Virus record (IMG/VR): IMGVR_UViG_2718218131_000006 | Direction: 5' to 3' (one strand) | Origin: a virus | Taxonomy: Duplodnaviria > Heunggongvirae > Uroviricota > Caudoviricetes | Length of the DNA stretch: 49,917 nt | Part shown: piece by piece, positions 20,671 to 46,033 of the stretch | Numbering within the stretch: position 1 is the stretch's first letter | Layout: every line of letters begins with the position of its first letter | Notes under the pieces: model-generated | What the model saw: the letters and a program-made list of their open reading frames with translations, nothing else | What the model was told of the DNA's origin: nothing | The model's database searches: none | Translations under genes and position numbers: made by a program

Positions 20671-22582
20671 TCACTCCTCCGGACAGCTTCGCTGCCAGTT
20701 CTTTCAGGGTTGGCCGGGTCGTCTCTTCTTCCCGGGATTTTGCCAGTACAGCCAGATCAAGCTGCCAGCGTTGCACGGACACACGTAATGCCGCGTAGGC
20801 ATACACCAGGCAGTCCAGCGCTTCGTTACGCCGCTTTTTGTTATCCCACAGCAGACGCATCTTTCCTTTTTCCCACTTCTCCACAAGCTCTTCCGCGACC
20901 AGTTGCTGCGCCTCTGTCTGCGAAAAAATCTCCGGATCATCAGGAAAACGGATGGCATACGACGTGGCTTCATCCGCAGGAGTGGGATCGGCTTTCATAC
21001 GGGCATAGAGAATTTCTTTTGCGGTGTCCGTCCCCACTTCACACAGATACACGCCCCGCTGATTGCGGGTTTTCGGCATGGTGATCACCGGCTTGCCATA
21101 GACAGATGCGCCTTTTACCGGCAGCACCCGGAAAACACCGTGTTTTTTTGACCTCTGATAGACAATTTCACCATCGATCCCCCCGGTGTCCCAGCAGACA
21201 CGGGAAATGGTCATTTCGGTTCCGTCTGCATGGCAGTATTTTTTGTTGATCGCCGCATCCACACGTAACAGCGTCTCTTCCTCATCGGGACGGCCCATAA
21301 TGATGATTTTATCCACCAGAAAGGCTTCCTCTCCCGGTGCCCATCCCCAGACATACATCTCAAAACGGTTTCGCTGCGAGTCAATGCCCGCCGTCAGATA
21401 AACCACCCGGGCAGGCACCGCCGCCGTGTAACGCACCACCTTATCCATCAGTACCTGGTGATCGAGTTTTTCGCCCACGGCCTCTTCCCAGGTCTCGCCC
21501 AGCGTGGTGTTCACAAAGGTTTTCAGGCCGTTGGGATCTTTCAGTGCATCCAGCCAGTCATAGACTATCTGTATCCAGGTGGTGAACGGACTGTACGCCG
21601 TCCAGATATGGAACGTGATGGAGCGCGGCGGCGGAATTTCATCCCCCCGGGCGCTGAAAAACGTCAGACCGTCACGGGTCCACATACCCGTGTTTTCACA
21701 GATCCAGCGCCCGTTACTCTGGTCAAGCTCAGACTGATGGATCACGCAGCCATGATGTTCACAGAGGTAGAAAACGCTTTCGGGGCTGTCCTTCTCCCAT
21801 TTAAGGCCAAAAGGCGTGGATTCATCGCCAAATTTCAGATACTGCGCCTCCCCACAGTGCGGGCAGGGCACATAGAAACGCATGAAATGCGCCGACTCGT
21901 TGGCCGCTTTTTCGATCTGGCAGGTACCTTTGATTTTAGGCGTCGAGCCGCGAATGGATTTTGGCCATACAGAGCCCTCAATACGCTTATCCCCCAGCAG
22001 GGTTGGCGAGCCCTCTTTTTCGACATCCGGCTCGAACGAGGAAAGCTCGTCATAGCAGACCACGTCCACGGATTTTTCACGGTAGTTTTTGGCGGCTGCA
22101 CCGCCCAGGCACCAGAAACCGACGCCCGATGAAAAGCGTTTCAGCGTGAGAGTATTGTCACGATGTTTACGACCCAGCCATGGGGAAAGGTCTTTCAGGC
22201 ATGGCACGTTCCGAATCGTCGCCTCCACGTGAGACTTCATAAAATCTTCAGCGGCAGAATCCGTGGGCTGAAAAAGCAGACTGTTTCGGGATTTATGCTC
22301 AATAAAATACCCGACCACCCCCAGCAACATCTTTGTATAGCCAACACGGGCAGATTTAATCAGGTTAACCGTGCGAACCTGGTCGTTACCCATACAGTTC
22401 ATAATGGCGATCTGGAATGGCAGCGTTTTCCATTCTCCCTCACCATATGAAGATTCTTTAGGCAGATAATAATTTTGATCAGCCCATTCAACTGCCGTCA
22501 TTGATACAACCCTGACCAGAGGCTGCAGCGCAACCGAAACGGCAGCCATCATATTATTCAGTTGTTGCTCTGATATATTCAT
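20654..22582 (-). CDS. A: Terminase large subunit A
   Basis: Start set at MNISEQQ by alignment to the lambda A N-terminus; conserved AVEWADQNYYLPKES; ATPase and nuclease regions. Confidence 0.9.
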   Translation of the reverse strand: MNISEQQLNNMMAAVSVALQPLVRVVSMTAVEWADQNYYLPKESSYGEGEWKTLPFQIAIMNCMGNDQVRTVNLIKSARVGYTKMLLGVVGYFIEHKSRNSLLFQPTDSAAEDFMKSHVEATIRNVPCLKDLSPWLGRKHRDNTLTLKRFSSGVGFWCLGGAAAKNYREKSVDVVCYDELSSFEPDVEKEGSPTLLGDKRIEGSVWPKSIRGSTPKIKGTCQIEKAANESAHFMRFYVPCPHCGEAQYLKFGDESTPFGLKWEKDSPESVFYLCEHHGCVIHQSELDQSNGRWICENTGMWTRDGLTFFSARGDEIPPPRSITFHIWTAYSPFTTWIQIVYDWLDALKDPNGLKTFVNTTLGETWEEAVGEKLDHQVLMDKVVRYTAAVPARVVYLTAGIDSQRNRFEMYVWGWAPGEEAFLVDKIIIMGRPDEEETLLRVDAAINKKYCHADGTEMTISRVCWDTGGIDGEIVYQRSKKHGVFRVLPVKGASVYGKPVITMPKTRNQRGVYLCEVGTDTAKEILYARMKADPTPADEATSYAIRFPDDPEIFSQTEAQQLVAEELVEKWEKGKMRLLWDNKKRRNEALDCLVYAYAALRVSVQRWQLDLAVLAKSREEETTRPTLKELAAKLSGGVNGYSR

Positions 22583-23063
22583 CGAGTAAATCCGGTAATT
22601 TATCCCCTGCCCGCGCACACTGATTTGCCCCCTTCGCAATAAGGGTTTTCAGATGGTCAAGATGGCGCGGTGTTAAATCAGGAAACTGTCGCTGCATGGA
22701 TAAAGGGATGGAATCAAGCGTACTGGATAACGCCATTGCCAGCTTACTGAGGGCAAAAATACAGAACCCGGTGTCAATCAGTTTTCCTTTTGACACCTCA
22801 TTTTTTAACTGCTGTGTAACAGCCTGTTCTGCTGTCAGTTCCCATCTGGCAATAAGCAATTTCTCCTCATAGTCGTCTTCGCTATCGCCATCAGGCACAT
22901 CGTTTTTACTTCTCCTCAGATACGATATGTAAAAATCGCGCCAGGCATCCAGATCCAGTTGCCCTCGCTTATTCGATATCGGGGCACCCGGCAATTTCTG
23001 CAATCTGCGAAGCTGGCGATCGGTCAGACTTAAATGCCTGGCAACTTCAGTCTGCGTAGCCAC
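22554..23063 (-). CDS. Nu1: Terminase small subunit Nu1
   Basis: N-terminal helix-turn-helix; C-terminal half resembles lambda Nu1; immediately downstream of cos. Confidence 0.85.
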   Translation of the reverse strand: MATQTEVARHLSLTDRQLRRLQKLPGAPISNKRGQLDLDAWRDFYISYLRRSKNDVPDGDSEDDYEEKLLIARWELTAEQAVTQQLKNEVSKGKLIDTGFCIFALSKLAMALSSTLDSIPLSMQRQFPDLTPRHLDHLKTLIAKGANQCARAGDKLPDLLDEYIRATTE

Positions 23064-23386: not shown

Positions 23387-23693
23387 TCAGGCTGCCAGAT
23401 CATCGTTTCCGATGGAAGCATAATAAGCTTTTTCTGCTTCTGCCGGTGGGATATGGCCCAGCCTTTCCAGCAATCGTCGATTGTTATACCAGTCCACCCA
23501 CGTGAGTGTGGCCAGCTCCACTTCTGTCCGGTTTTTCCAGCTCTTACGGTGTATTACCTCCGCTTTGTAAAGGCCATTGATGCTCTCCGCCATCGCGTTG
23601 TCATACGAGTCACCAGTACTTCCTGTTGATGCCAGTAATCCGGCTTCCTTAAGCCGCTGTGTGTAGGCCAGCGATACATACTGAGAACCTTTA
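23387..23693 (-). pseudogene. IS629 transposase orfB, C-terminal fragment (interrupted)
   Basis: GSQYVSLAYTQRLKEAGLLASTGSTGDSYDNAMAE...WYNNRRL is the IS3-family integrase core C-terminus. Confidence 0.8.
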
Positions 23694-23830
23694 TTGCAAA
23701 ATGGCATCTGAATCGATCGCAGTTTGGCATTCGAATCGATCATGATTTGGCATCCATCTCCGATCACAGTTTGGCATCACAATCGATCACGATTTGGCAT
23801 GCTTCCGATCATTGATTGGCATCCTGCCAG
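23694..23830. repeat. Multiple terminal direct repeats of the IS21-family element (left end)
   Basis: Five copies of roughly GATCANNGTTTGGCAT at about 23-bp spacing; related copies at the right end (26250-26342). Confidence 0.75.
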
Positions 23831-23896
23831 TCACTCCGGGAATTAACTCTTTTCACCACAGTCTCCATTGCCGTGTTTAAACCAGTGGAGACGTCA

Positions 23897-25462
23897 ATGT
23901 CCAGAAAGAGAAAATCCAGGAGCACTATGGAAACCTGTTTTAAGATTCTTCAGCTCAAGTTCGACAAGAAGCTGACTAACCGTTGTATCGGACTGACGTT
24001 ACACATCAGCGCCTCAACCGTTTTTGAGGTTCTTGCCCGCTTCAAAGCCTCTTCTCTGTCATGGCCATTACCTGCTGATATATCCCATGACACGCTGGAG
24101 AAACTCATTTTTCCGCCCAAAGACACCTTTGCATCAGAGCTTGTAATGCCTGACATGTTGTACCTCGATACGGAAATGAGAAAACCAGGTGTGACGCGGC
24201 AACTGTTGTGGATGGAATACAAGGCACAGGCGGGTAACAAAGCGATGGGATACTCGCACTTCTGCCGTTGCTACCGGGAGTGGAAAAAAACGCGACGTCT
24301 CTCCATGCGCCAGGAGCATCGTGCCGGCGAAAAGCTTTTTATCGACTTCTGTGGTCCTACGGTTCCTGTTATTAATCCGGACACCGGTGAGATACGCCGC
24401 GTGGCAATCTTCGTGGCCGTAATGGGGGCGTCCAACTATACCTACGTTGAAGCGTGCGAAGGTCAGGACATGATGTCATGGTTAAATGCCCACAGCCGTT
24501 GCCTGACCTTCCTGGGCGGCGTACCGAAGCTGCTCATCCCCGATAACCTCAGAAGCGCAGTGAAAAAGGCCGATCGATATGAGCCTGTCATCAACGACAG
24601 TTATCAGGCACTGGCTGAGCACTATGGCACGGTTATCATCCCGGCCCGACCACGCAAACCTAAAGATAAACCAAAAGCAGAAAACGGCGTCCTCATCGTC
24701 GAACGATGGCTTCTTGCCCGCATCCGTAATGAAACCTTCCACACGCTCAGGGCGCTGAATGCGCGCCTTAGGGAGTTACTGACAGACATGAATAACCGGC
24801 CAATGAAGGGGTACGGCAATCAAACCCGTGCAGAACGCTTCCGCATACTGGATGCGCCAGCACTCTCTCCGCTGCCTCTGGCACCTTATGAATACACGGA
24901 ATACAAAGCTGTGAAGGTTGGCCCTGACTACCACGTTGAATATGCCCGTCACTGGTACTCCGTTCCACACGAACTGGTCGGTCAGCGTCTGTCACTGAAG
25001 GCGGGGCAGTCGGTGGTACAGCTCTGGCACAAGGGGCAGTGTGTGGCGCAACATCCGCGCAGCACACATGAATATAAACACACAACCAATCCGCTTCACA
25101 TGCCAGAGCGCCACCGGCAGCACGGGACATGGACACCGGAACGCCTGATCGAGCAGGGAAAACGTACGGGCCCGTCCACAGGCCGGGTGGTTGAATCCAT
25201 GCTGAAGGCAAAACCCCATCCGGAACTGGCTTATCGTGCAGTTCTGGGGCTGCTGGCACTTCAGAAAAAATACGGCCCGGAACGGCTGGAAAAGGCCTGT
25301 TACGTTGCCCTGCACTATAACGCCCCTGACAGACGCTTTATCGACAATCTGCTGCGTCACCATCGGGAGAACCTGGAGCTTCCATTATCCCGCCAGGGCG
25401 AACAACATCCGGCATATGCTTCAGAGCATGAAAACCTGCGTGGTCCGGGCTACTACCACTGA
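23897..25462 (+). CDS. istA: IS21-family transposase IstA
   Basis: N-terminal helix-turn-helix followed by an integrase-like catalytic core; GGAG ribosome-binding site; followed by the IstB ATPase. Confidence 0.85.
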   Translation: MSRKRKSRSTMETCFKILQLKFDKKLTNRCIGLTLHISASTVFEVLARFKASSLSWPLPADISHDTLEKLIFPPKDTFASELVMPDMLYLDTEMRKPGVTRQLLWMEYKAQAGNKAMGYSHFCRCYREWKKTRRLSMRQEHRAGEKLFIDFCGPTVPVINPDTGEIRRVAIFVAVMGASNYTYVEACEGQDMMSWLNAHSRCLTFLGGVPKLLIPDNLRSAVKKADRYEPVINDSYQALAEHYGTVIIPARPRKPKDKPKAENGVLIVERWLLARIRNETFHTLRALNARLRELLTDMNNRPMKGYGNQTRAERFRILDAPALSPLPLAPYEYTEYKAVKVGPDYHVEYARHWYSVPHELVGQRLSLKAGQSVVQLWHKGQCVAQHPRSTHEYKHTTNPLHMPERHRQHGTWTPERLIEQGKRTGPSTGRVVESMLKAKPHPELAYRAVLGLLALQKKYGPERLEKACYVALHYNAPDRRFIDNLLRHHRENLELPLSRQGEQHPAYASEHENLRGPGYYH

Positions 25463-25478
25463 CAGAAGGAACAACAGT

Positions 25479-26234
25479 ATGAGTGATAACCTGTTAAACA
25501 AACTGACCCAACTGAAACTCCCGGCGATGGCCGGGAGCCTGATACGGCAGCGGGAAACGCCTCAGACCTACGACGAACTGTCGTTCGAGGAAAGGCTGAC
25601 GCTGCTGGTTGATGACGAGCTTCTGAGCAGGGAAAACAGCCGTGTGGCACGGTTGAGAAAAAATGCCGGCCTGAAATACCAGGCAACACCGGAAGGGCTG
25701 CGCTATCCGGCCTCAAGAGGTCTGCGGGCTGAACAGATGAGAGAACTGCTGAACGGCCACTACATAACCCACAGGAAAAACCTGCTGATAACCGGTCCGA
25801 CAGGATGTGGCAAGAGCTGGATAGCCAATGCGCTGGGCGAACAGGCATGTCGACAGAAACACAGCGTCCGGTACTGTAGAACCGGGCGATTACTGGAACA
25901 ACTGGCTCAGGGACGTGTTGATGGCAGCTGGCTGAAATATCTGAAACAGTTGCAAAAAATACAGGTTCTAATCCTGGACGATCTGGGGCTGGAACAGTTA
26001 AGTAACGCCCAGTGTAATGACCTTCTGGAGCTCATAGAGGATCGTTACGGACAAAGCAGCACGATAGTGGTAAGCCAGTTCCCGGTAGATAAATGGCATG
26101 GTCTGATGGAGAACCCAACAACAGCAGATGCCATCCTGGACAGACTGGTACATAACTCACACCGGGTGGTCCTTCAGGGAGAGTCACTGAGGAAAAATCC
26201 CCCGGTAGTGGAAAGCAGCGAAAAAACGCGTTAA
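25479..26234 (+). CDS. istB: IS21-family helper ATPase IstB
   Basis: Walker A motif ITGPTGCGKSW, Walker B LILDDLG; typical IstB length. Confidence 0.88.
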   Translation: MSDNLLNKLTQLKLPAMAGSLIRQRETPQTYDELSFEERLTLLVDDELLSRENSRVARLRKNAGLKYQATPEGLRYPASRGLRAEQMRELLNGHYITHRKNLLITGPTGCGKSWIANALGEQACRQKHSVRYCRTGRLLEQLAQGRVDGSWLKYLKQLQKIQVLILDDLGLEQLSNAQCNDLLELIEDRYGQSSTIVVSQFPVDKWHGLMENPTTADAILDRLVHNSHRVVLQGESLRKNPPVVESSEKTR

Positions 26235-26341
26235 AAAGCGGTAGAAAAAGTTAAGTTCCCGGTTGATCGAATGGATGCGAATCGCTGATCGGACTTCGAT
26301 GCCAATCCGTGATCGAATAGAGCGGAATACGCACCTTTATC

Positions 26342-26923
26342 ACTGTGATGGACTGTGCCGGACGGTCGACGGGCCCATAACGCCTGCTCCAGAGCATCCA
26401 GCACGAATGTCGTTTCCATAGACGATGAGACCCGCCACCCCACGATGTATCCGGCAAACACATCAATGATGAACGCCACATAGACGCCCCCCTGCCATGT
26501 GCTGACGTAAGTAAAATCAGCCACCCACAACTGGTCAGGACGTTCTGCCACAAACTGACGGTTTACGCGGTCGCCTGCGGCAACGGCTTTCCGGCTGACG
26601 GTAGTGCGGACCTTTTTACCCCGGAGAACACCGGCAAGTCCCATAACCGCCATGAGGCGCGCCACTGTACATCTGGCTACCCTGATTCCTTCCCGTAACA
26701 ACTGACGCCAGACTTTACGCACACCGTATACCTGATGATTCCCATCGTATACGCGCAGTATCTCTTTCTTCAGCCAGTCATCGCGCTGCGCACGGGCACT
26801 GCGTTTATCAGGATGATGTCGCTGTTGCTGACAGTGGTAATACGTTGACGGGGCAATATGTAGTTCACTGCATACCGGTCCGACCCCGTACAGCTTACGC
26901 AGCTTATCCAGCAGTGGCATCAC
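26342..26923 (-). pseudogene. IS629 transposase orfB, N-terminal fragment (interrupted)
   Basis: ...DQLWVADFTYVSTWQGGVYVAFIIDVFAGYIVGW...HHSDKG, then runs into IS21 end sequence. Confidence 0.8.
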
Positions 26924-27246
26924 TTTTTCCAGAGGCGGTCGAACTCCGCCTTTGCAAAATAAGCGGAAGCCTGGCGAAGGATATCGTTACTGCGGCGCAG
27001 TTCACGATTTTCACGTTCCAGCTCTTTCAGACGCTGACGTTCAGCGGTGGTGAGCCCGCCATCACCGCCTCCGGTATCCCGCTCATGCTGGCGTACCCAG
27101 ACACGCAGAGTCTCCGGTGTACAGCCAATCTTTGGGGCAATGGAACAAATTGCCGCCCACTGTGAGTCATATTCGCCCTGACTTTCCAGAACCATACGAA
27201 TCGCCCTCTGACGGACTTCGGGGGAAAAACGAGTATTTTTAGTCAT
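26920..27246 (-). CDS. IS629 OrfA (helix-turn-helix, leucine-zipper transposase subunit)
   Basis: [57 protein letters not shown] matches my memory of IS629 OrfA. Confidence 0.85.
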
Positions 27247-27722: not shown

Positions 27723-28037
27723 TTAGCATTTTTTTGACCGCGCGTTTCCGGACGTATTCTGTTCTCCTGTCCCTTTATATCGTCGGAATACCCGCCGCTC
27801 TTCAAATCCCATTCCCAACTCAGAATGTAGTCTGTTGACCGCTTGTTTTATTTCGGTCAGGTTCACCGGTGAAACCGGAGTCCGGCGCGCCTTACGCAAA
27901 CACTCTGCTCGTTTCTGTGCCGCCACTTTTCTTTTCTGGTCATCACTTAGCTGTACCATCACTTTTGCCCATCGTTCAGCTGCTCTCCGGTACAGTCCTT
28001 TTTTCTCCAGACATTCTGCCACGTGATCATGTAGCAT
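27723..28037 (-). CDS. pch: PerC-family transcriptional regulator (Pch-like, the prophage-encoded activator of LEE in EHEC)
   Basis: 104 aa starting MLHDHVAECLEKKGLYRRAAERWAKVMVQ; GLYRRAAERW is the PerC signature as I recall it; long AT-rich upstream region. Confidence 0.6.
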   Translation of the reverse strand: MLHDHVAECLEKKGLYRRAAERWAKVMVQLSDDQKRKVAAQKRAECLRKARRTPVSPVNLTEIKQAVNRLHSELGMGFEERRVFRRYKGTGEQNTSGNARSKKC

Positions 28038-35427: not shown

Positions 35428-35656
35428 TGTAAAACCTCTGGTATTGGATAAAACATGGCTGGAATATATCCACTACAAATAACGATTTCACTCCCAAAAA
35501 ATGCGTATTTCATGAGAAAAAACAATGACTTTTTCTTTCTGTCATTTGTATACTCTAAAAATAGAGTGTTTTTTGAGCCGCCATTCCTTAGCAAGTCCTC
35601 TGTATGGATATTGCCTGCCCTATTTAATTGTGTCACACTATGTATTACACAACGGT

Positions 35657-36040
35657 ATGGAACCAAACATGCGCATTTTCAAAAATGCCTGGTTTGAACG
35701 CTTCGCACGAAAAAATCGGATTTCCGATAAAGCTCTGCGAGAAGTCGTGGAACTAGCTGATAAGGGACTCATATCCGCAGATTTGGGTAGTGGTGTCATT
35801 AAGCAGCGATTAGCCCGAAGAGGTGGCGGTAAATCAGGCGGTTATAGGACAATAATTTTTTACCGCGTCGCAGAAAAGGCTTTTTTCATCTATGCGTACG
35901 CAAAGAATGAGAGAGAAAATATTACAGCCATCGAGGAAAACGCATTTCGAAAAGCTGCGCATCACGTTCTCAATCTTACTGATGAACAACTGGCGCAATT
36001 GATCCTGCAAGGTCAGTTTACGGAGGTACCCAATGAGTAA
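35657..36040 (+). CDS. HigB2/Gp49-like (RelE/ParE superfamily) toxin
   Basis: GSGVIKQRLARRGGGKSGGYRTIIFYRVAEKAFFIYAYAKNE matches the HigB-2/Gp49 pattern; start could be 35669. Confidence 0.65.
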   Translation: MEPNMRIFKNAWFERFARKNRISDKALREVVELADKGLISADLGSGVIKQRLARRGGGKSGGYRTIIFYRVAEKAFFIYAYAKNERENITAIEENAFRKAAHHVLNLTDEQLAQLILQGQFTEVPNE

Positions 36041-36350
36041 AAATTACCGCAGTGATGCACTTGCATCCGTACATGAAATGATGGAGTCACTTCAGGATAT
36101 TGGCGCAGTTACAAAACAAACTATGAGAGAGTTTGATGAACTCTGTCTGCAACCAGCGCCAACAATGTCGCCAGAAAGAATCCGGGCACTTCGCGAGCGC
36201 GAGCATCTGTCTCAACCTGTTTTCGCCAGATATCTTAATGTCAGTAAAAACCTCATTTCAGACTGGGAAAGGGGAATAAAGCGCCCTGGTGGCCCTGCCC
36301 TTCGTTTGCTTTCTGTGGTTGAGAAAAACGGAATTCAGTCAATCTGTTAA
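36033..36350 (+). CDS. HigA2-like XRE-family helix-turn-helix antitoxin
   Basis: 105 aa with C-terminal helix-turn-helix LSQPVFARYLNVSKNLISDWERG; GGAGG ribosome-binding site; 8-nt overlap with the toxin stop. Confidence 0.65.
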   Translation: MSKNYRSDALASVHEMMESLQDIGAVTKQTMREFDELCLQPAPTMSPERIRALREREHLSQPVFARYLNVSKNLISDWERGIKRPGGPALRLLSVVEKNGIQSIC

Positions 36351-41174: not shown

Positions 41175-42140
41175 TTACCCCCTGAAGCCCGGCGGAATTT
41201 CGGTATCCGGTTCAGAAATGTGATTCACACAACGCTGTACAGGCGAACGCCCCAGACGAATAACCAGCTCATCCCATTTTTCGCGAAGCTTTGACGGGCT
41301 CATGACGTTTTTTACCCAGAAGGGATCCCGCTGCACCCGACCAAACATTTCGCAAATTTGTCTGTGAGTTCTGCCATCCAGCATCCGCATTGTGCGCACA
41401 TCATTGGCCCATGCAGCCCAGTTGGGTTCTTTCGGTCGCATGATTTCGCCATCATCGCTGGCAGCCTGCTCGTAAAGACTCACGATTCGTCCCCAGATCC
41501 ACTGCGCACACGCTAAATCTTCCTGGCTACCCCACTGGCGTTTTTTCGCACTGAACACAACCGCGTCAGGGTGTCGGGTTAAAAAATCCTGTTCAGCCGT
41601 CTGCATGTCCGGTTGCGAAGCTTCCGGACGAGAAGTGTTTTTATTCTCTGTAGTGATCTCTGTTGTATTCTCTGTAAGATCATCAGGCCATTTTGACCCG
41701 ATGACATTGTGTCGTTTTGAACCAATGGAGCGTGTCATTTTGGCCTCTTCCATCGTGTCATTTTGACCTGATGGAGCGGCGCATTTTGACCTGATGGATT
41801 CGCTCACTTTGCCACCATCTAAAAGCTCGCTCTCGTAATTAATCGTGTAAAAATTAGTCATGTCACGCTTTGATTTGTTGAGCTTTTCGCAACGCAAAAG
41901 CCCCAGCGCTTTCAGACTTGCAAATGCGCGTTTTAACGTTGACTCTGACCAGAACGGGAACTGTTCCAGCCATTGTTCTGTTGTGTTATAAATCCAGCGA
42001 ACACCATCACATTCCATGCCGGAACCGGTATCTCTCAACCAGTAATGCAGCTGCTGCAACACGATGGCTTCGTTCAGACCAATTTTCATCGCCAGCTGCG
42101 TGTTAATAACCAGTGGGCGTTCAGCAAAAAGAAGACTCAT
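41175..42140 (-). CDS. Replication initiator (O-like organiser) with origin iterons inside the coding sequence
   Basis: Position between the cro-proximal gene and the DnaC-like gene; contains an iteron array; start set at MSLLFAERP. Confidence 0.7.
   Translation of the reverse strand: MSLLFAERPLVINTQLAMKIGLNEAIVLQQLHYWLRDTGSGMECDGVRWIYNTTEQWLEQFPFWSESTLKRAFASLKALGLLRCEKLNKSKRDMTNFYTINYESELLDGGKVSESIRSKCAAPSGQNDTMEEAKMTRSIGSKRHNVIGSKWPDDLTENTTEITTENKNTSRPEASQPDMQTAEQDFLTRHPDAVVFSAKKRQWGSQEDLACAQWIWGRIVSLYEQAASDDGEIMRPKEPNWAAWANDVRTMRMLDGRTHRQICEMFGRVQRDPFWVKNVMSPSKLREKWDELVIRLGRSPVQRCVNHISEPDTEIPPGFRG
41685..41805. repeat. Putative origin iterons: 5-6 copies of about CATTTTGACCTGATGGA at 23-24 bp spacing, with an AT-rich block at 41820-41870
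   Basis: Repeats read directly, for example ccattttgacccgatg, gtcattttgacctgatggagcg, gcgcattttgacctgatggattcg. Confidence 0.65.
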
Positions 42141-42642
42141 AATTCCATCCGACTTTTTGTTGATATTGCTGACGATACGCACGCTTGAAAGCAATGGCTT
42201 TTTCTATAAGCTCGTCAGTCTCACGTTCCACAACAGCTGGATCCGCAAAAAGCAGCCCGGACTCCACCACATCGCCATATTCTTTGTTTAACCCGGCGAT
42301 CATGTACGTAATGCTTTTTCCGTCAGTAATTTCACAATACAACCTGAAATCGCTGATCCGGATAGCCTCCATAATTGCCGGAATCAGCGCCGTGAATTTT
42401 TCACGCTTATCCCTGGTGTCGATAGCTTTCCAGCGTTCGAATATCTTCACCCTGTTAACGCCCAGCGCCCGTTGATCAACCGCGCCATCATCAAACGTGA
42501 CGCGATGAACATCGATGTTCGGGCGTTCTTTCAGAGCCCAGAATGCTTCCGTGATTAATATCGTCGCCTGCTCCTGCGTCATTCCTGGTCGGCATACCCA
42601 GGCATCCAGAGCCTCGCGAGCCTGCTCAGGAGTGAATATCAT
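42121..42642 (-). CDS. Hypothetical early protein (possibly YdaT/cII-like)
   Basis: 173-aa ORF between the cro-like and O-like genes; family assignment is a guess. Confidence 0.5.
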   Translation of the reverse strand: MIFTPEQAREALDAWVCRPGMTQEQATILITEAFWALKERPNIDVHRVTFDDGAVDQRALGVNRVKIFERWKAIDTRDKREKFTALIPAIMEAIRISDFRLYCEITDGKSITYMIAGLNKEYGDVVESGLLFADPAVVERETDELIEKAIAFKRAYRQQYQQKVGWNYESSFC

Positions 42643-42901
42643 TGTTCACCGCCAGTGATTCATTCGACATACACTTATTTTCACAAGGTAGTCCATCTGT
42701 TGGGTTGGGATAAATGTCAGGGCGAAGTTCGTGGGGAGTAATTTCCCAATTCAGTAATGCACAGAGTGACGACACGCGTTCAGCAGGAACCTTGCCTTTA
42801 ATGAACCACTTGCCTACGGCCTGGGAGCTAATGCCAAAGTGTTTGCCAATGTCAGTTTTCGACATTTTTTTAGAGATCTTATCGTGAATTTGATTACTCA
42901 T
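42626..42901 (-). CDS. Cro/DicC-like small helix-turn-helix regulator
   Basis: Divergent from the repressor; MSKTDIGKHFGISSQAVGKWF resembles the DicC/YdaS N-terminus; start could be 42864. Confidence 0.6.
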   Translation of the reverse strand: MSNQIHDKISKKMSKTDIGKHFGISSQAVGKWFIKGKVPAERVSSLCALLNWEITPHELRPDIYPNPTDGLPCENKCMSNESLAVNNDIHS

Positions 42902-42939: not shown

Positions 42940-42980
42940 TCAAAAACTATAAGTTTCAACACAAAACCTATAGTTTTGCT
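42940..42980. promoter_or_regulatory. Two near-palindromic operator-like sites (AAAACYATAGTTTT type) between the divergent cro-like and repressor genes
   Basis: aaaaactataagttt (42942-42957) and aaaacctatagtttt (42963-42977); TATACT -10-like hexamer at 42991. Confidence 0.5.
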
Positions 42981-43013: not shown

Positions 43014-43424
43014 ATGAGTAAAATAAACCATCCAATATTTGCTGAGAGAGTTCGGCAAGCAATGAGCGAACATGGCTGGTCGTTAGCCGGTCTGGCTAAA
43101 AAGGTTATGCTGTCCCATACCGCTGTGCGTAAGTGGGCAACAGGAGAAACCATTGCCAGCGGAGAAAGATTAAAAAGACTTGCCGCGGTAACAGGAAAAC
43201 CAGAACATTGGTTTTTTATGCCGCTAAATGAACATTCAAAGGAAGAAGATGCACCACCACTAATCCAGCTTGACGACAAAGAAAAGGCGCTATTGTCCCT
43301 TTTTAATCAGTTGCCAGAAACGGAAAAGCTGAGACTAATCATGCACACAAAAAGCATTCTTCATGAAATGGATCTTCTAAAAAACGATGTATACGACATA
43401 ATCAATGATATTCAAAAACAATAA
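43014..43424 (+). CDS. Prophage repressor (DicA/cI-like, XRE helix-turn-helix)
   Basis: N-terminal helix-turn-helix AERVRQAMSEHGWSLAGLAKKVMLSHTAVRKW; KALLSLFNQLPETEK resembles DicA. Confidence 0.75.
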   Translation: MSKINHPIFAERVRQAMSEHGWSLAGLAKKVMLSHTAVRKWATGETIASGERLKRLAAVTGKPEHWFFMPLNEHSKEEDAPPLIQLDDKEKALLSLFNQLPETEKLRLIMHTKSILHEMDLLKNDVYDIINDIQKQ

Positions 43425-43432
43425 GTTACATG

Positions 43433-43460
43433 AAAAAAGCGCCTCCCTGGCGCTTTTTTT
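43433..43460 (+). terminator. Rho-independent terminator after the repressor gene
   Basis: GCGCC-tccct-GGCGC then TTTTTTT. Confidence 0.75.
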
Positions 43461-43496
43461 ATCCTCACAAATAAAACTTTATGTTCCATTGCCTAT

Positions 43497-43525
43497 TGAC
43501 CAATAAAACCAATAGTTTTACCATT
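43497..43525 (+). promoter_or_regulatory. Putative early-left promoter with an operator-like palindrome in the spacer
   Basis: TTGACC, 17-nt spacer, TACCAT; spacer contains aaaaccaatagtttt, a third copy of the operator-like motif. Confidence 0.45.
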
Positions 43526-43602
43526 CATTCCATCAACAACGAACCGCATCGTTGTCAGGCTAAAGTTCCGCTACCCCGGCGTTAAGGGGAAATGAGGTCA
43601 GC

Positions 43603-43758
43603 ATGGATACTATCGATCTTGGCAACAACGAATCTCTGGTGTACGGCGTGTTTCCAAACCAGGACGGCACCTTCACCGCAATGACGTATACCAAAAGCAA
43701 AACGTTTAAAACCGAAAATGGTGCCCGTCGCTGGCTGGAAAGAAACTCAGGTGAGTGA
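43603..43758 (+). CDS. Small protein, YdfA-like by position and length (51 aa)
   Basis: Not in the ORF track because under 60 aa; GAGGT ribosome-binding site; MDTIDLGNNESLVYGVF... Confidence 0.5.
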   Translation: MDTIDLGNNESLVYGVFPNQDGTFTAMTYTKSKTFKTENGARRWLERNSGE

Positions 43759-43759
43759 T

Positions 43760-43888
43760 ATGGATTTTGACACAATCATGGAAAAGGCTTACGAAGAATA
43801 CTTCGAAGGCCTTGCCGAAGGCGAAGAAGCTCACAGCTTCAACGAATTTAAACAGGCGCTTTCCAGTTCGGCAAAATCTAACGGCTGA
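43760..43888 (+). CDS. Small acidic protein, YdfB-like by position and length (42 aa)
   Basis: ATG 2 nt after the previous stop with GGTGAG ribosome-binding site; MDFDTIMEKAYEEYFEGLAEGEE...; preferred over the overlapping basic 69-aa track ORF. Confidence 0.45.
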   Translation: MDFDTIMEKAYEEYFEGLAEGEEAHSFNEFKQALSSSAKSNG

Positions 43889-43917
43889 TAAGCGAAACAG
43901 CACCGCGAGGAATCAGT

Positions 43918-44124
43918 ATGCAGAAACGAGAACCCGTCATCATCGCGCCAGACTATACCGATGATGAACTTTATGAGTGGATGCGCGGGAAGATACGCGC
44001 CATTAATGACCTGAAGCAGGCCACTGATCACAAAGAGCGCCTCTCTGAAACACTGGCGTCAGTGACGCAGGATATTACCGCTCTGGCAAAAAGCGCGGCA
44101 TTAAACGTTTCGCGAGTGATCTAA
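43918..44124 (+). CDS. Small protein, YdfC-like by position
   Basis: 68-aa ORF with GAGGAA ribosome-binding site. Confidence 0.55.
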   Translation: MQKREPVIIAPDYTDDELYEWMRGKIRAINDLKQATDHKERLSETLASVTQDITALAKSAALNVSRVI

Positions 44125-44148
44125 AACCACCGACTGATGAGGTTGACT

Positions 44149-44787
44149 ATGGAATTTAAAGATTTACCAATTTCAATACAGGAAATGGCCGCTGATGTGA
44201 TTCGCTCGCAACTGGCGCGGAACCCAATGATATTAGTAGATAAACTGTTCATCAGAAATTTATCAAATCATGTCCGTAATTCTTTTACCGGACTGTATTC
44301 ATATTCGTTCACAAACAATCATTGTGTAGAAAATAAAGCAAAACTCATTGCAGAAACGACAGCGCAAAACATCAACACGAAACCAACGGAAGAAGAAATT
44401 GATCAGTTTGCTCATGATGCTGGTTTAAAAAACAAGGAAGAAAAATCGCCATATGCGGGAAACATGTTTGTTTATGACAACCTTATCCGAATTCGTGGCG
44501 AAATTCCGACTGAATACCTGGCAAAAATTCACCAGGCATTACTTAAAAATCTGGAAACGGAAGTATTTGATGGCAACACCAACGGCTCCTTCGTGGTGTC
44601 AGCTCTCGCAAAAGAGTGGGATAAAGATAATCGCTGGAATGTTGCTACATGGTTATTCAGCAACAAAGCTTCCGCCCTGGAAGCTGCGGCGTGTATTTGC
44701 GACCTGCTAAGGACAGACCGCAAATACAACCTGGATGTGTATAGCTATATTTATGCTGAACACTATCCGCTATGGATTAACTGGTAA
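44149..44787 (+). CDS. Hypothetical AT-rich 212-aa protein (moron of unknown function)
   Basis: GAGG ribosome-binding site; lower GC than its surroundings; no recognisable motifs. Confidence 0.6.
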   Translation: MEFKDLPISIQEMAADVIRSQLARNPMILVDKLFIRNLSNHVRNSFTGLYSYSFTNNHCVENKAKLIAETTAQNINTKPTEEEIDQFAHDAGLKNKEEKSPYAGNMFVYDNLIRIRGEIPTEYLAKIHQALLKNLETEVFDGNTNGSFVVSALAKEWDKDNRWNVATWLFSNKASALEAAACICDLLRTDRKYNLDVYSYIYAEHYPLWINW

Positions 44788-44997
44788 TTACAAAGCTGTA
44801 CCAGCAGGGCCACGACGACCAGCACCACGATTGTAATCAATGATGCCATTATAAAGCGCATTATTTAATTTATCGTCGAATGCCGATTCTGTGAGTCCTA
44901 GCTCTGAATGAGTTTTTAATAACCCTGATTGCCTGAGTTGATTAACCAGGCATTCAATCTGTTTTTCAATAAGCGGATGTATTGGCTTGTTTGGCAT
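44788..44997 (-). CDS. Hypothetical 69-aa protein, convergent with and abutting the 212-aa gene
   Basis: GGAGGA ribosome-binding site; MPNKPIHPLIEKQIECLVNQLRQSGLL...; stop codons of the two genes form TAATTA. Confidence 0.45.
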   Translation of the reverse strand: MPNKPIHPLIEKQIECLVNQLRQSGLLKTHSELGLTESAFDDKLNNALYNGIIDYNRGAGRRGPAGTAL

Positions 44998-45324
44998 TTT
45001 ATCCTCCATTGAGGTTCTGGGTTAAAAATGGAGACCAACACGCTGCCACGTGTGGTCGTGCGCCGGACACGGATAAGAATCCGGTACTGACAGTTTACTG
45101 AAAGGATATTTCCCTGAAAAGTCAGGGCATAACGCGAAAGCGCACGGCGGAGGTGTCTTTTCCTTAGAAGGCTTGTCGTTAGATTTCTTCGACCGTGCGC
45201 TTCCGGTTGTGGCAATCCGCGAAATGGCGCGGCGGTACGTATGGCGGGGTTATTCCTTCCCCCTGTTGAGGACACCGGGTTGTCAGGTTGACCATACGCC
45301 TGAGTGACAACCCCGCTGCAACAA

Positions 45325-45383
45325 CCCATGTTGATTACCTTTTGGCGGCATCAGTTTCATTGCTGGCTGATGTCCGCCCTTTT
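45325..45383 (+). ncRNA. dicF: DicF-like small RNA with intrinsic terminator
   Basis: TTTTGGCGGCATCAGTTTCATTGCTGGCTGATGTCCGCCCTTTTT resembles my memory of K-12 DicF; located just upstream of the dicB homologue as in Qin; 5' end approximate. Confidence 0.6.
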
Positions 45384-45387
45384 TAAA

Positions 45388-45550
45388 GTGAATTTTGTGA
45401 TGCGGTGAATGCGGCTCAGCGCACGCGGAACAGTTAAAAAGGCCAGTTGACTTCCGTATTGGTTCTTATGGGTGGGTTCTCTGTATCCGGCGTTAATTGT
45501 TAACTGGTTAACGTCACCTGGAGGCACCAGGCACCGCATCACAAAATTCA
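45388..45550 (+). promoter_or_regulatory. Perfect 19-bp inverted repeat enclosing about 125 nt, between the DicF terminator and the dicB ribosome-binding site
   Basis: TGAATTTTGTGATGCGGTG at 45388-45406 and its exact reverse complement at 45532-45550. Confidence 0.6.
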
Positions 45551-45567
45551 TTGTTGAGGACGCGATA

Positions 45568-45756
45568 ATGGAAACGTTATTACCAAACGTTAATACGTCT
45601 GAAGGTTGTTTTGAAATTGGTGTCAGTATCAGTAACCCTGTATTTACTGAAGATGCCATTAATAAGAGAAAACACGAACGGGAGCTATTAAATCAAATAT
45701 GCATTGTTTCAATGCTGGCCCGTTTACGTCTGATGCAAAAAGGATACTGGCAATGA
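45568..45756 (+). CDS. dicB: Cell-division inhibitor DicB
   Basis: 62 aa METLLPNVNTSEGCFEIGVSISNPVFTEDAINKRK...SMLARLRLM matches my memory of K-12 DicB; GAGGA ribosome-binding site. Confidence 0.8.
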   Translation: METLLPNVNTSEGCFEIGVSISNPVFTEDAINKRKHERELLNQICIVSMLARLRLMQKGYWQ

Positions 45757-45956
45757 ATACTGCTATTGCCCTCACTCTGACTGTTTTTCTTAACACTGGC
45801 GAGCCTGTTGACCTGGTTATTGACATTTACGGTTCGATGAAAGAATGCATGGCTGCCGCAGCAGAACAGAAAATTCCCGGTAACTGTTATCCGGTTGATA
45901 AAGTTATTCACATGGACAATAACGAAATCCCGGCAGGACTTAAACCAGCACCGTAA
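45753..45956 (+). CDS. Small protein, YdfD-like by position
   Basis: 67 aa; ATGA overlap with the dicB stop; hydrophobic N-terminus. Confidence 0.55.
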   Translation: MNTAIALTLTVFLNTGEPVDLVIDIYGSMKECMAAAAEQKIPGNCYPVDKVIHMDNNEIPAGLKPAP

Positions 45957-46033
45957 TAAATATCCGGTTTCATTTTTATATGCCAGCAATGACAGGGATT
46001 TGTTCACCCTTAAATCTATAATGAGGTTTATCA

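Follow-up and report, generated by a model that had tools for sequence, protein, structure and literature searches.

The IMG/VR virus record IMGVR_UViG_2718218131_000006, a stretch of 49,917 nt that is referred to here in its entirety as the window, carries a series of small genes and RNA elements resembling the Qin prophage's dicBF operon in Escherichia coli. Each window protein was compared by blastp with Qin of E. coli K-12 MG1655. A prophage repressor gene (43014-43424, + strand; 136 aa), with a helix-turn-helix (HTH) domain (HTH_3, PF01381, E=7e-10), is followed on the + strand by ydfA (43603-43758; 51 aa; DUF1391, PF07151), whose product is 100% identical to K-12 YdfA and 86% identical to YdaF of the Rac prophage, ydfB (43760-43888; 42 aa; 95% identical to K-12 YdfB; phrog_2061) and a ydfC-like gene (43918-44124; 68 aa; 63% identical to K-12 YdfC across 68 aa; phrog_1744). 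Next come two genes with no Qin counterpart, one of 212 aa on the + strand (44149-44787; full-length match to phrog_2151) and one of 69 aa, denoted p69, on the - strand (44788-44997; full-length match to phrog_4274). These are followed by the 5´ part of a DicF precursor (45010-45125, no strand assigned), a sequence common to many dicB loci (44 distinct sequences, 80 loci), by the long precursor hairpin found in the minimum free energy (MFE) fold (45126-45214, +), and by a DicF/KilS-family small RNA (sRNA; 45329-45384, +), which was detected as an Rfam DicF match at 45329-45379 and by a terminator scan. After a leader between sRNA and dicB (45385-45567, +), the + strand encodes the cell-division inhibitor DicB (45568-45756; 62 aa; 91.5% identical to K-12 DicB; PF05358 131 bits, NF049927 133 bits), a YdfD-like protein (45753-45956; 67 aa; 70% identical to K-12 YdfD; DUF1482, PF07358), a chimeric exonuclease of 821 aa, intact (46034-48499; PF06630 and PF16473), and an excisionase and an integrase (open reading frames (ORFs) at 48561-48830 and 48799-49917), the last two identified from the Prokaryotic Genome Annotation Pipeline (PGAP) annotation of a near-identical relative, NZ_CP148474 (99.7% identity).

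A sequence-only reading of this region had likened the order repressor, three genes of 51, 42 and 68 aa, DicF-like sRNA, DicB, 67-aa gene and exonuclease to that of Qin. All of these elements were found on the + strand, and YdfA, YdfB, YdfC, DicB and YdfD each aligned with their K-12 counterparts at the identities given above; DicB, DUF1391 (YdfA) and DUF1482 (YdfD) reached the curated family cut-offs of Pfam and NCBIfam. The five homologues lie on one strand, 3´ of the repressor gene, and the start of the ydfD-like gene overlaps the dicB stop codon as it does in K-12. At the DNA level, blastn with Qin gave two collinear blocks, 43551-44120 and 45057-46028 (85-89% identity), and synteny was broken by a single insertion. 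The genes listed for the span 43603-45956 are thus real, but the 936-bp insertion, about a third of that span, had been left out. The intact xis and int genes end the early-left transcription unit. By these alignments the similarity to K-12 is far beyond chance, and because the protein identities are 63-100% and the DNA blocks are collinear, we consider it very probable that a lambdoid E. coli prophage has its early-left (PL-type) operon here, one of the Qin dicBF kind. The differences from Qin are mosaic swaps, involving the immunity region, a two-gene cassette, the sRNA allele and the N-terminus of the exonuclease.

The prophage that houses the operon has full-length genes for O-like and DnaC-like replication proteins, Q antiterminator, holin, lysozyme, Rz, Nu1 and large terminase, portal, protease, major capsid, major tail, tape measure, J and tail fibre, which is the gene content of a complete lambdoid prophage. 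It had been described as apparently intact, and this holds for the main modules, but "intact" is a statement about gene content, and a nested insertion sequence (IS) adjoins the packaging genes. Here, an IS21-family element (istA 23816-25462, istB 25236-26234) has inserted into orfB of an IS3-family element, the whole occupying 23387-27246; the IS3 orfB now lies in two pieces, 26231-26923 and 23387-23767, orfA lies at 26920-27246, and the IS3 frameshift pseudoknot (ALIL) at 26849-26965. The nested elements are located between PerC (27723-28037) and Nu1 (22554-23063), near the expected cos region, and may have inactivated the phage. NZ_CP148474 carries the same IS3 without the IS21. The stop codon of int is where the window ends, so that att sites cannot be seen in it. 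Given the position of the nested elements beside the packaging genes, intactness is not demonstrable from sequence. It is conceivable, though we lean the other way, that the element is another decaying, non-inducible prophage in which the operon is kept for the benefit of the host, as in Qin. The placement of the nested IS close to the expected cos, the state of the closest relative NZ_CP148474, which shares the IS3 insertion and whose exonuclease gene is broken, and the absence of a recognised antirepressor would all fit with decay. On the other hand, all of the replication, lysis, packaging, head and tail genes checked are full length, the IS is intergenic, and xis and int are intact. In addition, the order DicF-dicB-ydfD-like-exonuclease-xis-int is present in Tritos and mEp460_ev081, which were deposited as complete phages and the second of which is described as functional.

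The immunity region differs from that of Qin. An HTH gene of the YdaS family occupies the Cro position (42626-42901, -; identified from the PGAP annotation of NZ_CP148474), and leftward of it lies a full-length YdaT-family gene (42121-42642) whose product is 90% identical to K-12 YdfX across 93 aa; K-12 ydfX is a truncated homologue of this gene. In a repeat search, a 15-bp operator-like palindrome of the AAAAC-N5-GTTTT type was found twice between the divergent cro-like and repressor genes (42942-42977, unstranded). Directly 3´ of the repressor gene, an inverted repeat forms a G+C-rich hairpin with flanking A and T runs (43430-43462, unstranded), which gave weak terminator-like Rfam matches and is probably a terminator. 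The only good + strand promoter match in the control region was a candidate PL-type (dicBp-equivalent) promoter, TTGACC-17-TACCAT (43496-43524, +), and a third operator-like copy (43505-43519; 93% identity) lies between its hexamers, a placement that would fit repressor control of a PL-type promoter. The repressor has the short architecture of DicA, without a peptidase domain, is 29% identical to DicA and scored 47.6 bits with the NCBIfam DicA subfamily, under the cut-off of 101. Given this low identity and the fact that homology to Qin DNA starts only 52 nt 5´ of ydfA, the immunity specificity is likely to be other than that of Qin. When the window was searched by tblastn with the Qin genes, including Rem and DicC, homologues were found only for ydfU, ydfT (the Q antiterminator), ydfX, essQ and ydfR. 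We also noted a 27-nt stretch of the operon leader (43564-43590), lying just 5´ of a small CCCC...GGGG hairpin, that shows 93% identity to the Rac leader upstream of ydaG and is also kept in Qin; it might be ribosome-binding-site context or a signal for processing or antitermination. A put- or nut-like antitermination element was sought in the leader (43525-43602), which yielded only the small hairpin and the stretch shared with Rac, and no Rfam match; such an element is left as speculation.

The 821-aa exonuclease combines a RecE N-terminal region with a C-terminal Rv2179c-like 3´-5´ exonuclease domain. It matched the NCBIfam RecE model NF007259 over model positions 1-603 of 877 only (917 bits, cut-off 1269) and is not a full-length RecE; its first 620 residues are RecE-like, with 57% identity to residues 50-591 of Rac RecE. 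The gene had been taken as a full ydfE equivalent. It is indeed an intact gene at the same position, but its product gave no blastp match to the 255-aa K-12 YdfE remnant that precedes IS2. That remnant instead shares 99% identity with the beginning, residues 1-255, of the Tritos exonuclease (823 aa). The window protein aligns with the Tritos enzyme only from residue 270 onward, at 61% identity, and it and K-12 YdfE both match phrog_2082 in non-overlapping parts. As judged by these comparisons, the equivalence to ydfE is positional only. No recT or bet partner gene was found 3´ of the exonuclease gene. In NZ_CP148474 (6435-8900 of our locus L002), the exonuclease is broken into a truncated RecE-family pseudogene and a separate gene with the 3´-5´ exoribonuclease domain.

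We then considered the RNA elements. The precursor region (45010-45385) gave an MFE fold with z = -3.6. Within 45010-45125, only the sequence from 45057 onward is conserved with K-12 (blastn), and on the - strand the whole segment is the common leader before varied reverse genes. The long hairpin at 45126-45214 retains its lower stem in 15 variants, with two compensatory pairs and a hypervariable apex. Thus, as in Qin, a structured RNase III-type hairpin lies 5´ of the sRNA; it corresponds by position to the site where RNase III would be expected to cut, giving the ~190-nt DicF species of K-12, and a species of this kind would, from the K-12 coordinates, start at ~45200 in the window (PMC10448788). 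The sRNA, positioned between the precursor hairpin and dicB as had been proposed, consists of a single-stranded 5´ tail, a 13-bp terminator hairpin and a U-run, and has the GGCGG/CCGCC stem base of DicF, which is invariant among 14 variants. With the Rfam DicF model (RF00039) it scored 34.1 bits (E=7.4e-5), so that the DicF-like hairpin is in the right place but under the gathering threshold of 48. KilS, an Hfq-associated sRNA in the kilR leader of Rac that was verified by northern analysis (PMC8175672) and that scored 39.1 bits with the same model, has exactly the same stem, GGCGGCAUCAG/CUGAUGUCCGCC. Identity to the Rac kilS-kilR leader is 79% over the 218 nt that reach from the stem almost to dicB, and sub-threshold Rfam matches to STnc100 were obtained in both leaders. 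KilS is a relative of DicF, and the leaders (window 45329-45567, K-12 Rac stretch 7250-7466) are alike though KilR and DicB are unrelated. Consensus folding of the DicF alleles recovered only the invariant stem base as the loops do not align, and we claim no covariation in the upper stem. On these comparisons, the window RNA is best called an allele of a DicF/KilS sRNA family.

The loop of this allele departs from that of K-12 DicF. The anti-Shine-Dalgarno motif CUCCG of K-12 is replaced (window AGUUUCAUUGCUGG, K-12 AGUUUUACUCCGUG), and the 5´ tail also differs. In silico, K-12 DicF formed 11 of 12 pairs over CGGAGAGAAACU, and the loop segment that pairs at 11/12 with the Shine-Dalgarno region of ftsZ, AGUUUUACUCCG, is among the sequences replaced in the window allele (for the K-12 genetics of DicF-ftsZ pairing, see PMC5069750). 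The best 12-nt match of the window sRNA to ftsZ had 9 pairs and did not cover the Shine-Dalgarno sequence, and the loop region thus does not have the ftsZ complementarity predicted for K-12 DicF. The energy of its duplex with the ftsZ initiation region was at background, at the 46th percentile vs the 9th for K-12 DicF; RNAduplex discriminates poorly, K-12 DicF itself being only at the 9th percentile, and we use these energies as a relative statement only. Taken together, the predictions make an action of the window sRNA on ftsZ doubtful. They would also agree with the hairpin at the DicF position being only an intrinsic terminator or attenuator that, with a processing site, splits the operon, and not a trans-acting regulator of ftsZ, as would the low Rfam score and a stem stronger than that of K-12 (-21.0 vs -15.9 kcal/mol). 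We find this explanation rather improbable, however, given that the allele is kept at ≥95% identity in 85 complete-genome records, that the identical stem occurs in a northern-verified, Hfq-bound sRNA (PMC8175672), that a 5´ tail, terminator hairpin and U-run are the usual layout of Hfq-dependent sRNAs, and that DicF targets other than ftsZ pair with the 5´ tail, not the loop.

Some of the observations count against the assignment of the region as a PL-type operon of the Qin dicBF kind within a full-length prophage. The candidate promoter matches the consensus at only 9 of 12 positions. No homologue of the Rem antirepressor was found in the window by tblastn and no N-like antiterminator gene was recognised in it, while the strong sRNA terminator (-21 kcal/mol) stands before dicB, xis and int; repressor inactivation and passage of the sRNA terminator are therefore left without a candidate factor. 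The sub-gathering score of the sRNA, its poor pairing with ftsZ and the IS next to nu1, all described above, belong with these. Overall, the sequence comparisons support the initial view of a Qin-like operon in a full-length prophage.

The sRNA alleles were surveyed at 80 sampled DicB-encoding IMG/VR loci, a sample biased to DicB proteins like that of the window. The K-12 type (class A) was found 23 times, the window type (class B) 20 times and a third type (class C) 35 times, with one other, singleton form and three cases without a hairpin. Only the class A alleles, at 72-77 bits, passed the Rfam gathering threshold. Allele frequencies were very different in complete E. coli genomes, 4010 of 5426 of which have a K-12-type sRNA, compared with the 85 records for the window allele and 154 records for class C at ≥90% identity. 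The class C allele (for example, at IMG/VR loci L022, L008 and L073) has the form GGCGGGUAUCC...U-rich loop...GAUACCCGCC and shows a 10/12 match to ftsZ -20 to -9, and a short fourth form is present in the DicF position at IMG/VR locus L006. Neither class C nor the fourth form is detected by Rfam at the gathering score, and those class C sites that were examined in complete E. coli genomes bore no annotation. Four places in an O157:H7 genome match the K-12-type query; Melson and Kendall reportedly described four DicF copies in enterohaemorrhagic E. coli in 2019. Rfam and PGAP annotate only K-12-type DicF, and alleles like that of the window go unannotated.

The insertion relative to Qin (44121-45056) places 936 bp between ydfC and the DicF precursor where K-12 has 76 bp (blastn). 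Its two genes are arranged tail-to-tail with no spacer, and a GGAGG Shine-Dalgarno sequence precedes the ATG of p69. Of 5426 complete E. coli genomes, 589 cover at least 80% of the stretch 44125-45330, which includes the insert. The 212-aa protein is composed of a conserved N-terminal domain of ~50 aa, here called "MEFKDLP", which is common to phrog_1363, phrog_6937 and phrog_9419, and a cassette-specific C-terminal part; its homologues occur in Escherichia and Salmonella only and are named "Ybl81" or hypothetical. No Pfam, NCBIfam or PADLOC match was obtained for it, the best hit of a PDB profile search (E=0.19) was unusable, and a poor AlphaFold2 model (predicted local distance difference test score, pLDDT, 57) gave no fold match when compared with the PDB by Foldseek (best E=0.011, template-modelling score ≤0.27). 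For p69 there was likewise no Pfam, NCBIfam, PADLOC or PDB match, and the model, a two-helix hairpin (pLDDT 77), had no Foldseek match in the PDB (best E=1.9). Most p69 substitutions across five related loci are synonymous and fall on the third base of a codon, and p69 thus behaves as a real gene that evolves under purifying selection.

At other loci, the slot that separates ydfA/B/C from the DicF precursor (44121-45125 in the window) measures 450 to 1375 nt and holds different genes. A + strand "MEFKDLP" gene was present in 43 of 66 loci, encoding proteins of 52 to 212 aa with the shared N-terminus of ~50 aa and at least seven different C-terminal parts. In most loci, what follows is an unrelated small gene on the reverse strand that is specific to the variant (61-162 aa; membrane helices in some), such that at least seven cassettes can be distinguished: the 135-aa protein was paired with one of 77 aa in 10 of 11 loci, the 124-aa protein with one of 148 aa in seven of seven, and wherever the 212-aa type occurs its partner is p69. 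The reverse genes begin just 3´ of a strong Shine-Dalgarno sequence, ahead of which lies one of a small set of leader types that recur: GGAGG (window type), AGGAGG (K-12 type) or a third type. Nine other reverse-strand cassette proteins from IMG/VR loci had no Pfam or PADLOC match, and the 66-aa reverse protein of mEp460, scanned against Pfam only, had no match. Rac SieB itself had no PADLOC match, so PADLOC cannot test an analogy with sieB. We found no paper describing the variable slot in the literature searched.

The recurrence of these cassettes suggests that the slot is a swap site for genes expressed in the lysogen, but it could equally reflect passive linkage between two recombination junctions. 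We considered whether the 212-aa and 69-aa proteins form a functional module, for example a toxin with an antidote or exclusion with defence, in which the lysogen would express the reverse gene, as it does sieB. The joining of a particular C-terminal variant to a particular reverse gene in each of at least seven cassettes, the strong Shine-Dalgarno sequences and recurring leaders before the reverse genes, the purifying selection on p69, and the presence of sieB in the same position and orientation in Rac are in agreement with this idea. However, no member had a Pfam, PADLOC, NCBIfam or fold match, the co-variation may only reflect two fixed junctions around one block, and the promoter scan revealed no convincing promoter for p69, the only consensus match overlapping its start codon. 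A functional module is therefore an unlikely reading for now.

Elsewhere in the window, a 290-aa ORF at the tail-fibre end (1-873) has five EspF-type proline-rich repeats (PF04806, E=4e-136), and we read it as a putative effector for type III secretion, of the kind of EspF/TccP. The prophage of NZ_CP148474, which sits between potB and potC, has espK and espO at its tail-fibre end. The nin-like region (35525-36350) contains + strand ORFs of 171 and 105 aa, which correspond by position to a RelE/ParE-family toxin and a DNA-binding regulator of NZ_CP148474 and recall relBE in the same region of Qin.

The gene order, strand logic, RNase III precursor hairpin, position of the sRNA and ydfD-dicB overlap are shared with the Qin operon (dicA/ydfABC/dicF/dicB/ydfD/ydfE), and Qin ydfX is matched by the YdaT-like gene. 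Unlike Qin, the window has a divergent repressor (29%) with other operators and another promoter, the two-gene insertion of 936 bp, no detected rem homologue, an sRNA without the ftsZ anti-Shine-Dalgarno loop, and an intact exonuclease with another N-terminus, all in a full-length prophage. The Rac layout (racR / ydaG / ydaF / sieB (reverse) / kilS / kilR / ... / recE / recT / xisR / intR) is similar in its DUF1391 gene (86%), a reverse-strand gene just before the sRNA, the identical terminator stem, the leader from sRNA to inhibitor (79%), the N-terminal 600 residues of a RecE-like exonuclease (57%), and xis and int at the end. It differs in that the inhibitor is KilR, not DicB, sieB and p69 are not related, RecE keeps a nuclease domain of its own and is partnered by recT, and the loop and 5´ part of the sRNA are different. 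Two temperate phages known from complete genomes also have the operon placed between repressor and xis-int. Tritos (OV696610) has ydfA, ydfB, ydfC, an annotated DicF, dicB, ydfD and the 823-aa exonuclease, and mEp460_ev081 (LR597641) has a ydfA-like gene, DicF, dicB, a ydfD-like gene, exonuclease, xis and int; in place of ydfB and ydfC, its slot holds a "MEFKDLP" gene (121 aa) and a reverse 66-aa gene. In contrast to the window, both have K-12-type DicF (72-77 bits), a YdfE-type exonuclease N-terminus and other immunity regions. In the PL operon of lambda, the exclusion gene sieB is oppositely oriented. The lambda operon, with kil, is also a repressor-controlled early-left operon encoding an FtsZ-directed division inhibitor (PMC3961180), but that inhibitor has no sequence relationship to DicB, and the lambda operon starts with the N antiterminator, of which no counterpart was recognised in the window.

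What we observed are homology, gene order, RNA hairpins and prophage gene content; how the operon would work can be proposed from the processing and function of dicBF in K-12 (PMC10448788, PMC5069750, PMC6832061, PMC8835842). The short DicA-like repressor would bind the 15-bp palindromic operators and keep the operon silent in the lysogen. Derepression would give one transcript covering ydfA-ydfB-ydfC, the 212-aa gene and the structured precursor. RNase III would cut the long hairpin, and RNase E together with the intrinsic terminator would release an Hfq-type sRNA of ~55 nt. Read-through would allow synthesis of DicB, which would block division through MinC and ZipA and interfere with inner-membrane phage receptors, as well as of the YdfD-like lysis protein, the exonuclease, Xis and Int. 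As a tentative extension, for which our confidence is low, the exchanged loop and 5´ tail of the 45329-45384 RNA might turn it away from ftsZ and towards other mRNAs of the host, with DicF, KilS and at least two further alleles forming one modular "seed-swapping" family of prophage sRNAs upstream of unrelated division inhibitors. In the same proposal, the slot might be a hotspot of paired cassettes, each with a forward gene of shared N-terminus and polymorphic C-terminus and a reverse small gene with a recurring leader, that are expressed in the lysogen for exclusion or defence, by analogy with sieB.

The operon was proposed in 2016 to survive only in defective prophages, no phage matches having been found (Balasubramanian et al., 2016; PMC5069750), and was subsequently noted in the functional phage mEp460_ev081 (Ragunathan et al., 2023; PMC10448788). 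Of 5426 complete E. coli genomes, 4903 contain matches to parts of the 6-kb region, a DicB relative is encoded on at least 592 IMG/VR stretches, many of them contigs of 40-45 kb, and the same gene order recurs in IMG/VR contigs, through xis-int where the contig extends that far. The 2016 view is thus overturned by mEp460_ev081 (PMC10448788) together with phage genomes and hundreds of viral contigs, and a dicBF operon in a full-length prophage is a real and already known arrangement, such that its presence here carries little weight of its own. The leads that the window offers are the putatively retargeted sRNA allele and the cassette slot. Otherwise, it is one more example of the dicBF operon as a normal early-left part of live lambdoid phages.

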